Origin: a virus
Lineage: Duplodnaviria; Heunggongvirae; Uroviricota; Caudoviricetes
Reading direction: 5' to 3' (one strand)
DNA length: 9,456 bases
Virus record (IMG/VR): IMGVR_UViG_2534681624_000015
Below are positions 1-8,521 of this stretch, one piece after another. Position 1 is the stretch's first letter. Every line of letters starts with the position of its first letter. The position numbers and the translations under genes are program-made. The notes below the pieces were generated by a model. The model was not told the DNA's origin, ran no database searches, and worked only from the letters and a program-made list of their open reading frames with translations.

Positions 1-525
1 TTATACAGCTTTTTTTACATCGTCTTCTCTTGCCGGGAGGTTGTGTTCCTTATTTTCATACTGAGATAAAATCTCTCTCGCTTTTTCCGGCGGTAATGCT
101 TGAAGTGTCTGTAGGGTTCTTTGTTGTTCTACAGTAACCCCCAATGCTTCTAACGCTTTATCTTTGCTAACAATTGTCGGCATAAGACCTTTAATTCCTG
201 CCACACGAATGATCTCAATAGCCGCAGCTTGCTCATCAGGCGTTAAGAAACTCATTGCATAAACTAGCCGCTCATCAACTGTATGATGGCTTGGTACATG
301 TACTGGAGGGGTATCAGAAAATGATGCTCCCTTAATAGCCCTTTGGGTTTCTTCTGGTAAGCTGTTGATGTGATATTCATAAGCCACACCTTTTCCACCA
401 TGACGTTGACGTTTTACCCAATCTTCTGCCACAGCCTTTCTGGTAATGTTAGTCGCCAACTTTGGCACACCAGGCATCCCCTCCAGCTCTTTCGCATTAA
501 ACCATTCTTTGATTTCAAAAGACAT
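1..525 (-). CDS. c: Mu/D108-family immunity repressor (Repc), 174 aa
   Basis: Complete minus-strand ORF with stop at 1-3 and ATG at 523-525. C-terminus ...DDVKKAV resembles the Mu repressor C-terminal tail. N-terminal ~60 aa are paralogous to the N-terminus of the downstream transposase ([19 protein letters not shown]...WV.RQ...KGV), the known repressor/transposase DNA-binding domain relationship. Divergent from ner-A-B as in Mu. The 174-aa size fits a D108-type repressor (recalled, not searched). Confidence 0.85.
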   Translation of the reverse strand: MSFEIKEWFNAKELEGMPGVPKLATNITRKAVAEDWVKRQRHGGKGVAYEYHINSLPEETQRAIKGASFSDTPPVHVPSHHTVDERLVYAMSFLTPDEQAAAIEIIRVAGIKGLMPTIVSKDKALEALGVTVEQQRTLQTLQALPPEKAREILSQYENKEHNLPAREDDVKKAV

Positions 526-619: not shown

Positions 620-648
620 TTGATTCCAAAAAGATTTCACTGTACATT
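620..648 (+). promoter_or_regulatory. Candidate early promoter Pe (-35 TTGATT 620-625, 17-bp spacer, -10 TACATT 643-648)
   Basis: Sigma70-like hexamers with 17-bp spacing reading toward ner; the predicted start (~655) sits just before the Ner operator palindrome. Pattern match by eye only. Confidence 0.4.
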
Positions 649-658
649 GCTCGATATG

Positions 659-688
659 CCGTGAGCTACTTTGCAGAGTAGCTCACGG
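659..688. promoter_or_regulatory. Ner operator: perfect inverted repeat CCGTGAGCTAC(T)-spacer-(A)GTAGCTCACGG
   Basis: Directly seen: 11-bp arms at 659-669 and 678-688 are exact reverse complements with an 8-bp spacer (12-bp arms with 6-bp spacer if the flanking T/A pair is included). It lies about 25 bp upstream of the ner start. It matches my recollection of the D108 Ner binding site (two 11-bp inverted repeats separated by 8 bp). Confidence 0.6.
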
Positions 689-712: not shown

Positions 713-934
713 ATGCATATGAATAAAAGAGCTAACCGCCAAGACTGGCATCGGGCTGACATCGTTGCTGAGTTACGAAAACGCAATATGTCACTGGCCG
801 AATTGGGAAGATCGAATCATCTTTCGTCTTCAACATTAAAAAATGCTTTAGATAAGAGATACCCAAAAGCGGAAAAAATCATTGCAGATGCATTGGGAAT
901 GACACCGCAGGATATCTGGCCATCTCGATACTAG
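713..934 (+). CDS. ner: Ner, small DNA-binding negative regulator of early/repressor transcription (73 aa)
   Basis: ORF frame 671..934. I prefer ATG at 713 (RBS AAAGGA at 698-703, 9-nt spacing; second ATG at 719) over the TTG at 671, which lies inside the operator palindrome. Product [33 protein letters not shown]...IWPSRY shows the Ner-family pattern (DWHRAD..., ...IWPSRY C-terminus). Sits immediately upstream of A as in Mu/D108. Confidence 0.85.
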
Positions 935-941
935 GTGCGCT

Positions 942-2930
942 ATGAAAGAGTGGTATACAGCGAAGGAATTGCTTGGTTTTGCTGGTTTGCCAAAGCAAGC
1001 AACTAACATTACACGTAAGGCACAAAGAGAAGGCTGGGTGTTTAGGCAAGTTACAGGTACTAAAGGTGTATCATTTGAATTCAATATCAAATCATTTCCT
1101 GTTGCATTACGTGCTGAAATTTTATTGCAACAAGGAGGTATTGAAACAAGCCAGGGCCGTTTTGAAATCGCCCGCCCCACGCTGGAAGCCCATGATTATG
1201 ATCGTGAGGCACTGTGGAGCAAATGGGATAATGCCAGCGATTCCCAGCGCAGACTTGCTGAAAAATGGTTGCCTGCGGTTCAGGCTGCAGACGAAATGCT
1301 GAACCAGGGGATTTCAACGAAAACGGCATTTGCGACCGTTGCAGGACATTACCAGGTCAGCGCATCCACTTTGCGAGACAAATATTACCAGGTACAGAAG
1401 TTTGCGAAGCCTGACTGGGCGGCTGCGCTTGTTGATGGACGTGGTGCATCCCGTCGCAACGTTCACAAAAGTGAATTTGACGAGGATGCCTGGCAGTTTC
1501 TGATTGCAGATTATCTGCGACCAGAAAAACCCGCCTTCCGCAAATGTTATGAGCGTCTGGAACTGGCAGCCCGCGAGCATGGCTGGAGTATTCCCTCCCG
1601 TGCCACGGCCTTTCGCCGGATTCAGCAACTGGACGAGGCAATGGTTGTTGCCTGCCGTGAAGGTGAACATGCACTGATGCATCTGATACCGGCACAACAG
1701 CGAACTGTGGAACACCTGGACGCCATGCAGTGGATCAACGGCGACGGTTATCTGCATAACGTCTTTGTACGCTGGTTTAACGGTGATGTGATCCGCCCGA
1801 AAACATGGTTCTGGCAGGATGTGAAAACCCGAAAAATTCTGGGCTGGCGCTGCGATGTGAGCGAGAACATTGATTCAATTCGCCTCTCGTTCATGGATGT
1901 TGTGACTCGCTACGGTATCCCGGAGGATTTTCACATCACCATTGATAACACCCGTGGTGCTGCGAATAAATGGCTGACGGGAGGCGCGCCCAATCGCTAC
2001 CGCTTTAAGGTAAAAGAGGACGATCCAAAGGGACTGTTTTTACTGATGGGCGCGAAAATGCACTGGACAAGCGTTGTTGCCGGTAAAGGCTGGGGCCAGG
2101 CAAAACCTGTTGAACGTGCTTTCGGTGTTGGTGGGCTTGAGGAATACGTTGATAAGCATCCGGCACTGGCTGGCGCATATACGGGGCCAAATCCTCAGGC
2201 AAAACCTGATAACTATGGCGACCGCGCTGTTGATGCAGAGCTGTTTCTGAAAACCCTTGCCGAAGGTGTGGCGATGTTCAATGCCAGAACAGGCCGTGAA
2301 ACAGAAATGTGCGGGGGCAAACTCTCGTTTGATGATGTTTTCGAGCGTGAATACGCCAGAACGATTGTGCGTAAGCCAACCGAAGAACAAAAACGGATGC
2401 TGTTACTGCCTGCCGAGGCGGTGAACGTTTCACGCAAAGGCGAGTTTACGCTTAAAGTTGGCGGCTCCCTTAAAGGCGCGAAAAACGTTTATTACAACAT
2501 GGCATTAATGAATGCCGGCGTGAAAAAAGTTGTGGTCAGGTTTGATCCGCAGCAGCTACACAGCACGGTTTATTGTTACACCCTGGACGGTCGGTTTATC
2601 TGTGAAGCGGAATGTCTGGCACCTGTTGCGTTTAATGATGCTGCGGCAGGCCGTGAATATCGCCGCCGCCAGAAACAACTGAAATCTGCGACGAAAGCAG
2701 CGATTAAGGCACAGAAACAAATGGATGCACTGGAAGTGGCAGAGCTGCTGCCGCAGATAGCCGAACCTGAAGCACCAGAATCACGAATTGTCGGCATTTT
2801 CCGGCCTTCCGGTAATACGGAACGGGTGAAGAATCAGGAGCGTGATGATGAATACGAAACTGAGCGTGATGAATATCTGAATCATTCGCTGGATATTCTG
2901 GAACAGAACAGACGTAAAAAAGCCATTTAA
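942..2930 (+). CDS. A: Mu-type DDE transposase MuA (662 aa)
   Basis: Long ORF starting 7 bp after the ner stop. Catalytic DDE triad at D268 (WINGDGY), D335 (HITIDNT) and E391 (KPVERAF), matching Mu D269/D336/E392 with a one-residue offset. C-terminus ...[10 protein letters not shown] is the MuA tail recognised by ClpX. The N-terminal domain is paralogous to the repressor N-terminus. Confidence 0.95.
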
Positions 2931-6023: not shown

Positions 6024-6563
6024 ATGGTTGATGCAAAAATTCTGAATGGTGTCAGCATATTATTACGGGCTTACGGGCGCCTGACCTGCGGAGTTCTGGC
6101 TGAAAAAATGAATATGCTGCCCTCGTCAATGGTGTATTTCCTGCGTGATGCGGTTGATGCCGGAGTGCTCACCGAATGCAACGGATTTTATGACGTACCG
6201 CGTCCCCGTACAGAGCCGCCTGTAAGACGAAACGCAACTGAGCAGCCTGCTGTTGATGATGCGGTGTGGTGCAACTGGCGTCGCTCATTACCCTGGGTGG
6301 AAGGTAATACCATCCCTGCGCTGGCAAAAGAGTTTGCGACAGGCGTACTGACCTGTGAGTCAGTTCACATCGTTGCAGAAGTGGATGACGAGATGTGCAA
6401 ACAGGGAATGCCCCGTTTTGTGATGGCTTATATCGATATCTGGCTGGGGCGGTTTATTTGCAGTTCAGGCGCCTGGAATATCACCGACCATGTACTGCGT
6501 TATCTCATCATTGATTTTTCATCAGCACCGGGTGTGGTGCAGGAGGCTGGTTGTGAAATTTGA
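6024..6563 (+). CDS. Hypothetical early protein, N-terminal winged-helix-like segment (179 aa)
   Basis: RBS GAGGA 7 nt upstream of ATG. N-terminal LLRAYGRLTCGVLAEKMNMLPSSMVYFLRDAVDAGVLT resembles a wHTH recognition unit. Its stop overlaps the start of the next gene. Confidence 0.7.
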   Translation: MVDAKILNGVSILLRAYGRLTCGVLAEKMNMLPSSMVYFLRDAVDAGVLTECNGFYDVPRPRTEPPVRRNATEQPAVDDAVWCNWRRSLPWVEGNTIPALAKEFATGVLTCESVHIVAEVDDEMCKQGMPRFVMAYIDIWLGRFICSSGAWNITDHVLRYLIIDFSSAPGVVQEAGCEI

Positions 6564-7248
6564 AGACTGGGGTATTGATAAAAGTTGTGGCCGGGACGTC
6601 CTGGTGTACAAAAACTGTAGCGTGATTGAAGGAGAAGATGCCTGGCAGGTTCTGGATATACTTCGTTCTGCTTTATGCAGAGCTGGCTATGTTACGCCAG
6701 CGTCAGTTAATGGCGGAACTGCCACTACCTGTATCAGAAAGCAACTTTATAGTTTTTATACAGCCTACAACCAATGGTTAAAGAATGGGGCAATGGAGAC
6801 GGGCGATGATGTATTTATCCGGGCTGCCGGATTATGTGCCAATGCTTACGATTATTTTGAATCAACCGGTGCAGACAGTGAAGCCGCATTAGAACAATTA
6901 CATGCGGACTTTATCTCAGCAGGGCTGAATGCGATATTGCCATTTAACCGGGAGAGCGAACATTACATAAACGAAAGCAAATTAGCCAGATGCCACCTTA
7001 ATTCAGCACGTGTGGCATGGGTTGAAAAACACTGTATTAGTTCTGATTCAGAAATAACGGGGAAAAAGACAGTCGGTGAAACATCGTATTCGTGGCCGGG
7101 GACATTTACCACGGTGAAACAGGAATGCCCGACCTGCGGGAATGAATCCCCTGAATATCTGAAAGAGTGCCCTCATTGTGGCGGGCAGAAATGCAACCAC
7201 TGCGATATGGGCGATGACACGGCGTGCATGAATTGTGAAGGTGAGTGA
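6553..7248 (+). CDS. Hypothetical early protein with C-terminal 8-Cys double zinc-ribbon-like motif (231 aa from GTG 6553)
   Basis: ORF frame 6490..7248. I prefer GTG at 6553 because a canonical AGGAGG (6541-6546) sits 6 nt upstream and it overlaps the upstream stop by 11 nt (translational coupling); the ATG at 6490 has no RBS and would overlap 74 nt. C-terminus CPTCG-x11-CPHCG-x4-CNHC-x7-CMNC. Confidence 0.7.
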   Translation: MKFEDWGIDKSCGRDVLVYKNCSVIEGEDAWQVLDILRSALCRAGYVTPASVNGGTATTCIRKQLYSFYTAYNQWLKNGAMETGDDVFIRAAGLCANAYDYFESTGADSEAALEQLHADFISAGLNAILPFNRESEHYINESKLARCHLNSARVAWVEKHCISSDSEITGKKTVGETSYSWPGTFTTVKQECPTCGNESPEYLKECPHCGGQKCNHCDMGDDTACMNCEGE

Positions 7249-7249
7249 T

Positions 7250-7561
7250 ATGAATAATGGTGTATTTTCAAAATCAGAAGAGCTTGCCGCCCTGCTGATT
7301 GCCGGTGGTTTGCCGAAAAAAGAAGTGCATGACTTTGTGAGTTTTGTATATGAGTCGTCTCATGAAAAAGCTATTGATGAAGTCATGGCGTACCGGTTTG
7401 GCATTATTGCTGAGTCACTGAGTCCTCACTGGATTATTGAAAATCTCCGCACTATTGCTGATGGTAACAATAAAGTGGCGGCTGTCGCCGCCCTTGATGC
7501 GCTGCAACGTATGAACAGGGAACTATTCAATCCCGAGTTTCTTTTTAAGAAACGAGGTTAA
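7250..7561 (+). CDS. Hypothetical early protein (103 aa from ATG 7250; GTG 7235 alternative)
   Basis: ATG at 7250 follows the upstream stop (TGAtATG) with GGTGA 6 nt upstream. No motif recognised. Its 3' end overlaps the 3' end of a convergent minus-strand ORF by 39 bp. Confidence 0.65.
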   Translation: MNNGVFSKSEELAALLIAGGLPKKEVHDFVSFVYESSHEKAIDEVMAYRFGIIAESLSPHWIIENLRTIADGNNKVAAVAALDALQRMNRELFNPEFLFKKRG

Positions 7562-7939
7562 CCACTGTTTGCCGACGTCTGTTACGAGCGTCATCGGGGC
7601 GTCGGCAAGGTCCTGTTTTATGCGCTCAAGAATGGGTTTTTGATGTAGTGCTTTCGCAAAATCATGACCATCTTGTGTAAGTCTGACACTGGTGCCTGAA
7701 TATGAATATCCGAGGCTTGTTGGGGTGAGACCAATGCTTTTTGCGGTGCCTGTTTCCAGATATCTGTTGCTGATAAAACCATTTTCAACCAGCAACAGAA
7801 GATGGAAAACCAGCTTCTGATGGCTGTCGCTGTGCCGCTGAGAACAATCCCAGCCGACATCTTCCAGTCGAATGAATGCGGTGTCGGCCTCCAGAAAAAC
7901 ATCAAATATTCTGGCTATCTCGTCATAATCAATTTTCAT
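7523..7939 (-). CDS. Reverse-oriented hypothetical protein (138 aa), possible small winged-helix-like phage accessory protein
   Basis: Only ORF of 60 aa or more covering 7562-7801 on either strand apart from a shorter minus-strand ORF in another frame. Minus-strand ATG at 7937-7939 preceded by AAGGA at ~7-nt spacing; non-repetitive, balanced composition. Segments KLVFHLLLLVENGFI and RLTQDGHDF and the C-terminal KKKLG recall a small phage-associated domain family of unknown function (DUF2513-like, from memory, unverified). Confidence 0.55.
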   Translation of the reverse strand: MKIDYDEIARIFDVFLEADTAFIRLEDVGWDCSQRHSDSHQKLVFHLLLLVENGFISNRYLETGTAKSIGLTPTSLGYSYSGTSVRLTQDGHDFAKALHQKPILERIKQDLADAPMTLVTDVGKQWLTSFLKKKLGIE

Positions 7940-7969
7940 ATCTCATTCCTTAATATGAGAGGTGAGCAA

Positions 7970-8521
7970 ATGAATCGCACATCCCTGATTAAATTAATCC
8001 ATGTCGCCCGTCGGGAGCTACAACTCGACGACGACACTTACCGCGCTTTTCTGATGCAGAAAACGGGCAAAACCAGTTGCCGCGAGCTGACGGTCACGCA
8101 ACTGGAACAGGTGCTCGATGCCATGAAAGAACGCGGCTTTAAGAAGCTGAATAAACATCCACGTCGCCGCTTTAAGGGGTATGCCACTCCCCGCGAGAAG
8201 GTATACAAAGTCTGGCAGCAGATGGCAGAAGACGGTTTTATTACCGATGGCGGTGATGTGGCGCTGGATAAATATGTTCAGCGCCTGACAGCGAAACGCA
8301 ACGGCGGACAGGGTGTTTCCACACTGGCGTGGTGCCACGGAGAATCGTTGCAGGTTGTGCTTGAAACCCTGAAACAGTGGCACATCCGCTGTATTCGTGA
8401 AGCCTTTTCCCGTCACGGGCTTCCATTGCCGGTCAGTCCGTCCGGGCGTGAACTGCGCGGCTATGATGCCATGACGGCGGCTTATGCCCATGCCAGAAAG
8501 ACGCGGAGGATGGCACAATGA
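7970..8521 (+). CDS. gemA: GemA, early gene-expression modulation protein (183 aa)
   Basis: ATG at 7970 with GAGGTGA 7 nt upstream gives 183 aa, the size I recall for Mu GemA. N-terminus MNRTSLIKLIHVARRELQLDDDTYRAF... The stop overlaps the mor start (ATGA), as expected for the gemA-mor pair. Confidence 0.8.
   Translation: MNRTSLIKLIHVARRELQLDDDTYRAFLMQKTGKTSCRELTVTQLEQVLDAMKERGFKKLNKHPRRRFKGYATPREKVYKVWQQMAEDGFITDGGDVALDKYVQRLTAKRNGGQGVSTLAWCHGESLQVVLETLKQWHIRCIREAFSRHGLPLPVSPSGRELRGYDAMTAAYAHARKTRRMAQ

Follow-up and report, generated by a model that had tools for sequence, protein, structure and literature searches.

Introduction

In the phage DNA analysed here, the repressor gene c and the early gene ner diverge from a short intergenic region, and this region contains a perfect inverted repeat. 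What reads this repeat, whether the small DNA-binding protein Ner, some other protein, the early mRNA in its own fold, or nothing at all, is the question that the locus raises. A first-pass annotation had taken the repeat for a Ner operator matching that of phage D108 and differing from that of Mu, and had linked it to a D108-type immunity region joined to an early region shared with Mu. We follow up these claims below. The window, as we call the whole stretch of DNA that was analysed, is 9456 bp long, and positions refer to it unless another record is named.

The palindrome and its surroundings

The argument concerns the following features.

1–525, minus strand: gene for the c repressor, 174 aa, D108/SfMu type (Pfam PF02316, Mu DNA-binding domain, E = 1.2e-44)
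620–648, plus strand: candidate early promoter Pe, with -35 TTGATT, a 17-bp spacer and -10 TACATT (8/12 consensus match)
659–688: the whole palindrome, a 30-mer read directly as CCGTGAGCTACTTTGCAGAGTAGCTCACGG
659–669: left (Pe-proximal) arm CCGTGAGCTAC, exact reverse complement of 678–688
670–677: 8-bp spacer TTTGCAGA, the SfMu-type allele (the D108-type allele is TTTATAGC)
678–688: right (ner-proximal) arm GTAGCTCACGG, exact reverse complement of 659–669
713–934, plus strand: ner, 73 aa, HTH_35 DNA-binding family (Pfam PF13693, E = 1.2e-28)
942–2930, plus strand: transposase A gene, with residues 1–62 of D108 type and the remainder common to Mu, D108 and SfMu

Direct reading and a repeat search both confirm the perfect inverted repeat with 8-bp separation that the first-pass annotation had described, and its placement just upstream of ner also holds, since the palindrome ends 24 bp before the ATG at 713. 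On its other side it begins 10 bp after the -10 hexamer of the candidate promoter. The same 30 bp can alternatively be read as perfect 12-bp arms, CCGTGAGCTACT and AGTAGCTCACGG, around a 6-bp spacer, because the arms gain one further base pair at the spacer side; this explains the wording '11/12-bp' that had been used for it. Overall the 30-mer is a 14/15 palindrome.

No other perfect inverted repeat in the 9456-bp window has arms of at least 11 bp and a spacer of at most 20 bp. Among dinucleotide-preserving shuffles of the window, 12 of 300 held any such repeat (mean 0.053 per window); combining this rate with the 187-bp size of the c–ner intergenic region, our own arithmetic gives a chance of ∼0.001 for a placement there. 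The window contains no second copy of either arm, the next-best arm match having two mismatches, which is the level expected by chance.

The promoter candidate TTGATT-17-TACATT is the only rightward one conserved in D108 (957–985). Its predicted start falls near 654–656, so that the palindrome would span roughly +4 to +33 of the early mRNA. Mu has the same geometry: its Pe (TTTACA-17-TATCTT) lies at 993–1021, with the promoter annotated to 1028 and the Ner site from 1029. In Mu, the D108-type phages and two further Mu-like loci, L011 and L012, a -10-like hexamer ends 6–12 bp ahead of each palindrome. A leftward promoter Pc was sought by consensus on the minus strand, to the palindrome's right, but no -35/-10 pair of acceptable quality turned up, whether in D108, Mu or the window. 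By analogy with Mu biology, the palindrome would lie where the transcripts from Pe and Pc overlap.

Two further observations concern this region. A perfect 9-bp inverted repeat, AAATCTTTT and AAAAGATTT, at 601–637 brackets the -35 hexamer (620–625) of candidate Pe, and could be a c-repressor operator. Next to ner, an out-of-frame ATG at 708 opens a mini-ORF of four codons (MKCI*, 708–722) that overlaps the ner start at 713. In L011 the equivalent of this ATG is the in-frame start of ner (MKCEKR...), which suggests that the ner start in D108-type phages has been shifted by a small indel.

Phage identity and the mosaic boundary

In its left end (1–1300) the window shares 99.4% identity with Shigella phage SfMu (KP010268) and 87.6% with E. 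coli phage D108 (GQ357916), and DNA homology to Mu begins only at 1122–1130. By nucleotide identity, then, the closest relative of the left end is SfMu, not D108. Across the full window SfMu matches with 85% coverage at 95.9% identity, leaving two stretches unmatched, D108 with 82% at 95.6%, and Mu with 74% at 97.0%, all of it from 1122–1130 on; the best complete E. coli genome matches 91% of the window at 96.2%. On this pattern of coverage and identity, the window belongs to one more mosaic phage of the Mu/D108/SfMu group.

The proteins give the same picture. The c repressor is identical to that of SfMu, 90% identical to that of D108 and 26% identical to that of Mu. Ner is likewise identical to SfMu Ner and agrees with D108 Ner at 72 of 73 residues, the sole difference being A7 in the window for T7 in D108, and with Mu Ner at 49%; its relatives in the PDB are Mu Ner (1ner/1neq) and EnrR (7f9h). 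According to the SfMu paper, c shares 89% and Ner 98% identity with the D108 counterparts (PMC4406740). Transposase A changes its affinity along its length: residues 1–62 are 100% identical to SfMu, 95% to D108 and 37% to Mu, and residues 63–662 are 99–99.5% identical to all three alike. In the DNA, homology to Mu is absent up to about codon 60 of A, and identity is high beyond it.

The first-pass annotation had asked for a comparison of the left end with D108 and Mu, and had predicted from the 174-aa repressor and the divergent transposase N-terminus that D108-type immunity would be found joined to the shared Mu-like early region at the known mosaic boundary. The comparison supports it on each point: the left end is D108-like with Mu matches from 1122–1130 only, the repressor is far nearer to that of D108 than to that of Mu, the transposase N-terminus is similarly divided (95% versus 37%), and protein and DNA identities agree on the boundary. 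That the left ends of Mu and D108 are not homologous has long been known, judging also by the title of Mizuuchi et al. (1986) as cited in PMC3820752.

The N-terminal DNA-binding region of c is 95% identical to that of D108, despite 64.6% identity in the c-proximal intergenic DNA. The 5′ part of c (434–513, minus strand) has 72.5% DNA identity to the 5′ part of A in inverse orientation (D108 1279–1358, SfMu 1269–1348), which corresponds to the known homology between the N-terminal DNA-binding domains of repressor and transposase.

Elsewhere in the window, blastn aligned two stretches, 6546–7077 and 7260–7970, to none of the early regions of Mu, D108 and SfMu. Three ORFs lie here:

6490–7248, plus strand: ORF of 252 aa, phrog_6418, no Pfam hit
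7235–7561, plus strand: ORF of 108 aa, phrog_1988, no Pfam hit; marginal PADLOC match to PDC-M42B (E = 0.0094)
7523–7939, minus strand: ORF of 138 aa, phrog_585, no Pfam hit

The PADLOC comparison gave no match for the first and third of these. The third is a leftward gene within the rightward early operon, ending just before gemA, and has within it a perfect inverted repeat of 9–10 bp with a 17–19 bp spacer, at 7763–7799.

Conservation of the palindrome among relatives

A three-way alignment places identical arms with the same 8-bp spacing at collinear positions in D108 (GQ357916, 996–1025) and SfMu (KP010268, 986–1015), at an equal distance from ner. The exact D108-type pattern has no match in the Mu left end.

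We compared 17 loci of the D108/SfMu type, namely the window, D108, SfMu, seven E. coli prophages and seven viral contigs. The left arm is unchanged in all 17 and the right arm in 15; both arms are intact in D108, SfMu, the seven prophages and five of the seven contigs. In the remaining two contigs, L115 (473–502) and L166 (6277–6306), the right arm reads GTAGCTCGCGG instead of GTAGCTCACGG, a single A-to-G change, and is combined with the D108-type spacer; this natural variant could be used to test how much that position matters. Among the 17 loci the spacer takes just two forms, TTTGCAGA (SfMu type) and TTTATAGC (D108 type). None of the examined records for SfMu, D108 and the E. coli prophages marks the site.

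Between the window and D108 the arms are identical at 22 of 22 positions and the spacer at 5 of 8 (Fisher one-sided p = 0.014). All the substitutions here lie within the spacer, which is consistent with constraint specific to the arms. The conservation of the arms is nevertheless only modestly above the local background, because identity to D108 reaches 95.8% in the ner leader and 91.9% in the ner coding sequence; it is 82% in the promoter segment and 64.6% in the c-proximal intergenic DNA (526–619).

A more distant relative is informative about which bases are kept. L012, from an Enterobacteriaceae genome and with a Ner 79% identical to that of the window, has cGAcGAGCTAC-gcgtaaag-GTAGCTtAtGG at the same position. 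The inner hexamers (GAGCTAC-N8-GTAGCT) and the 8-bp spacing are retained, and the outer arm bases and the spacer are changed, a pattern that fits half-site recognition by a protein. In this locus c, ner and the N-terminus of A have all diverged together.

When viral contigs were scanned for the degenerate inner site GAGCTAC-N8-GTAGCTC, 120 loci came back, seven of them informative; the other 113 were set aside as chance matches with no Ner gene nearby. In a crude survey of 54 non-redundant loci for Ner homologues (58 genome contigs), the strongest upstream palindrome was not concentrated at the distance seen in the window, but clustered near -60 to -80, -100 to -140 and -200 to -260 from the HRAD codon. 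As this gives no family-wide distance rule, our argument draws on the close Mu-like relatives only.

The Mu Ner site and ner-linked palindromes of other Mu-like phages

The Mu Ner site, which we take to be two inverted 12-mers ANPyTAPuCTAAGT placed 6 bp apart, can be located in the Mu genome (AF083977), where the motif ANYTARCTAAGT occurs at 1029–1040 on the plus strand and at 1047–1058 on the minus strand. The interval 1029–1058 falls exactly between two stretches that the Mu record annotates as Ner binding region. In the window this motif has no match even when one mismatch is allowed; the Mu-type site is absent there.

Palindromes also stand upstream of ner in other Mu-like loci (L011 at 789–818, L012 at 1148–1177 and L013 at 1143–1176), and in these as in Mu each arm has a core of AGCT or TAGCTA. 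The spacing of the arms differs between the lineages, at 6, 8 or 12–14 bp. L011 shares the run TACTTTGCAG with the window, in another register relative to the centre of the palindrome.

Probable assignment of the palindrome to Ner

The window holds the arms and spacing of the D108-type operator, located between c and ner and adjacent to a gene for a D108-type Ner. The palindrome footprinted with D108 Ner, reportedly two perfect 11-bp inverted repeats 8 bp apart in the work of Tolias and DuBow of 1985 and of Kukolj and colleagues in EMBO J of 1989, is presumably exactly the sequence at 659–688. With identical arms, identical spacing and a Ner that differs by one N-terminal residue, the case that the D108 footprint carries over to the window is a strong one, by inference rather than demonstration. 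The site thus agrees with the D108 Ner site in arms, spacing and position, as the first-pass annotation had stated, and it is equally right that it differs from the Mu site, whose motif is present in Mu and absent here. PMC10434027 also cites work of 1994 on the Ner repressor of D108 and an operator of 61 bp.

Judging from these comparisons, 659–688 is very probably the operator at which this phage's own Ner acts, with specificity of the D108/SfMu type. We infer from this Ner binding, the positions of the transcription starts and the repression of Pe and Pc, along the following lines. Ner would be the first product of the early transcript and would bind the two 11-bp arms, which follow closely on Pe at about +4 to +33. 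Once bound, it would hinder RNA polymerase at Pe, so that expression of ner, A and B would be self-limited; by analogy with Mu it would also block leftward transcription of c. Such a shut-off of c would keep an infection or an induction on the lytic path, a role like that of Cro.

The repeat would also fold in RNA, and it is conceivable that a stem-loop at the 5′ end of the Pe transcript, or its complement in any leftward c leader, controls mRNA stability or ner translation, with binding of Ner secondary or absent. The RNA from 654 to 730 does reach a folding energy of -27.4 kcal/mol (z = -5.16, none of 200 shuffles being as good), the palindrome forming a long stem close to its 5′ end, and the SfMu-type spacer extends that stem to 14/15 pairs. 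Any palindromic operator within a leader would fold in this way, however, and the Mu leader, whose Ner site has an equivalent function, shows no unusual stability (z = -0.50). The D108-type and SfMu-type spacers differ without compensatory logic, there is no T-run, the ribosome-binding site is free of the main stem, and in L012 what is kept is only the inner 6–7 bp of each arm and the spacing, which suits half-site recognition better than a stem. Covariation in the arms that would separate constraint on DNA from constraint on RNA was not found among the relatives. We consider a purely RNA-level role very improbable; an effect in RNA may instead exist in addition to the operator role, and the SfMu-type spacer might make the 5′ hairpin of the early mRNA more stable than that of D108.

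It is extremely improbable, in our estimate, that the palindrome serves some other protein, be it the c repressor, the N-terminal domain of transposase acting at an operator or enhancer, or IHF, CRP or LexA of the host. The position would suit such a site, for the c–ner control region of Mu and D108 is known to contain c operators and an IHF site. SfMu lysogens are, moreover, UV-inducible (PMC4406740). Yet the motif is present in a single copy, whereas repressor and enhancer sites come in several copies, placed in Mu on the side of Pe that faces c; the IHF-like matches are at 538–598, outside the palindrome; and the arms match D108 in full, against 64.6% identity in the c-proximal DNA. For these reasons a site for c, transposase or IHF is unlikely. 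On inspection, the motifs of LexA (CTGT-N8-ACAG) and CRP (TGTGA-N6-TCACA) did not fit 659–688. As for a repeat that arose by chance, hitch-hikes with its neighbourhood or terminates transcription, and has no operator function, 4% of shuffled windows do hold some perfect 11-bp inverted repeat and the adjacent DNA is also well conserved. Against this stand the ∼0.001 chance of a placement within the 187-bp control region, the persistence of the repeat across 17 loci (with the right arm in 15 of the 17) and the confinement of the window/D108 substitutions to the spacer. No intrinsic (Rho-independent) terminator was found on either strand of 480–760: the palindrome is flanked by GTGAATCTG and, on the minus strand, by CATATCGAG, and the lack of a T-run leaves it unlike a terminator. 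The probability of all this taken as one explanation is close to negligible.

With 659–688 read as a Ner operator, there is the further matter of how many Ner molecules it would hold. The arms of the window contain the mini-palindromes GAGCTA and TAGCTC, and those of Mu and L011 contain TAGCTA. EnrR, a Ner homologue of Edwardsiella, binds the short palindrome CTATAG as two closely packed molecules (PMC9023278). Taken with the AGCT or TAGCTA cores of the arms, this makes two Ner molecules per arm a speculative possibility. By that analogy the AGCT mini-palindrome of each arm would seat a close-packed pair, giving four Ner per operator, with the spacing of the arms setting specificity; we think this rather unlikely. 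The SfMu-type spacer, through which the palindrome reaches 14/15, might additionally tune the cooperativity of Ner.

For the phage or prophage in the window, the assignment means D108/SfMu-type Ner specificity together with D108-type immunity, not those of Mu. The immunity type predicts which Mu-like phages are heteroimmune with it, and Ner and its operator form a ready-made pair that should be orthogonal to that of Mu. Beyond correct annotation, where the coordinates are useful, the importance of the site is small.

Comparison with known systems

The c–ner region of SfMu is the nearest known counterpart: the 30-bp site, Ner and c are all 100% identical to those of the window. The SfMu paper leaves the operator undescribed, and the word 'operator' does not occur in it (PMC4406740). 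Given this identity to published DNA, the element is already known in kind and in sequence. This analysis contributes its coordinates, the two alleles of the spacer, a natural variant of one arm, and the core that persists in a relative whose Ner is 79% identical.

The D108 operator shares both arms (CCGTGAGCTAC and GTAGCTCACGG), the 8-bp spacing, the distance to ner and the upstream promoter candidate, but has the spacer TTTATAGC, which departs from TTTGCAGA at 3 of 8 bases; the allele of the window extends the perfect arms to 12 bp. The Mu operator resembles the site in being an inverted repeat that lies directly beyond the Pe start and ahead of ner, in serving a homologous HTH protein, of 75 aa, and in the AGCT-centred cores of its arms. 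It differs in its 12-bp arms ANYTARCTAAGT, its 6-bp spacer and its other flanking bases, and Mu Ner is 49% identical to that of the window.

EnrR (PDB 7f9h/7f9i), as an HTH homologue of Ner, is the best PDB match to the Ner of the window (E = 1.1e-22). Unlike a dedicated phage switch, it binds AT-rich DNA genome-wide and antagonizes H-NS, and its consensus AATAAATNATTTATT bears no relation to arms of the D108 type (PMC9023278). Over-expression of EnrR in E. coli BL21 led to cell lysis and to release of 'phage Mu D108-like' particles (PMC9023278). This hints that a foreign protein of the Ner family is able to induce a D108-like prophage.

A functional parallel is offered by Cro of phage lambda, whose action at OR is established. 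Like Ner as proposed here, Cro is a small early HTH repressor that acts between divergent genes, where it lowers transcription from the repressor promoter as well as from the promoter for early lytic expression. It belongs to another protein family, and lambda employs three operators of graded affinity, in contrast to the single bipartite site downstream of the promoter in this phage.
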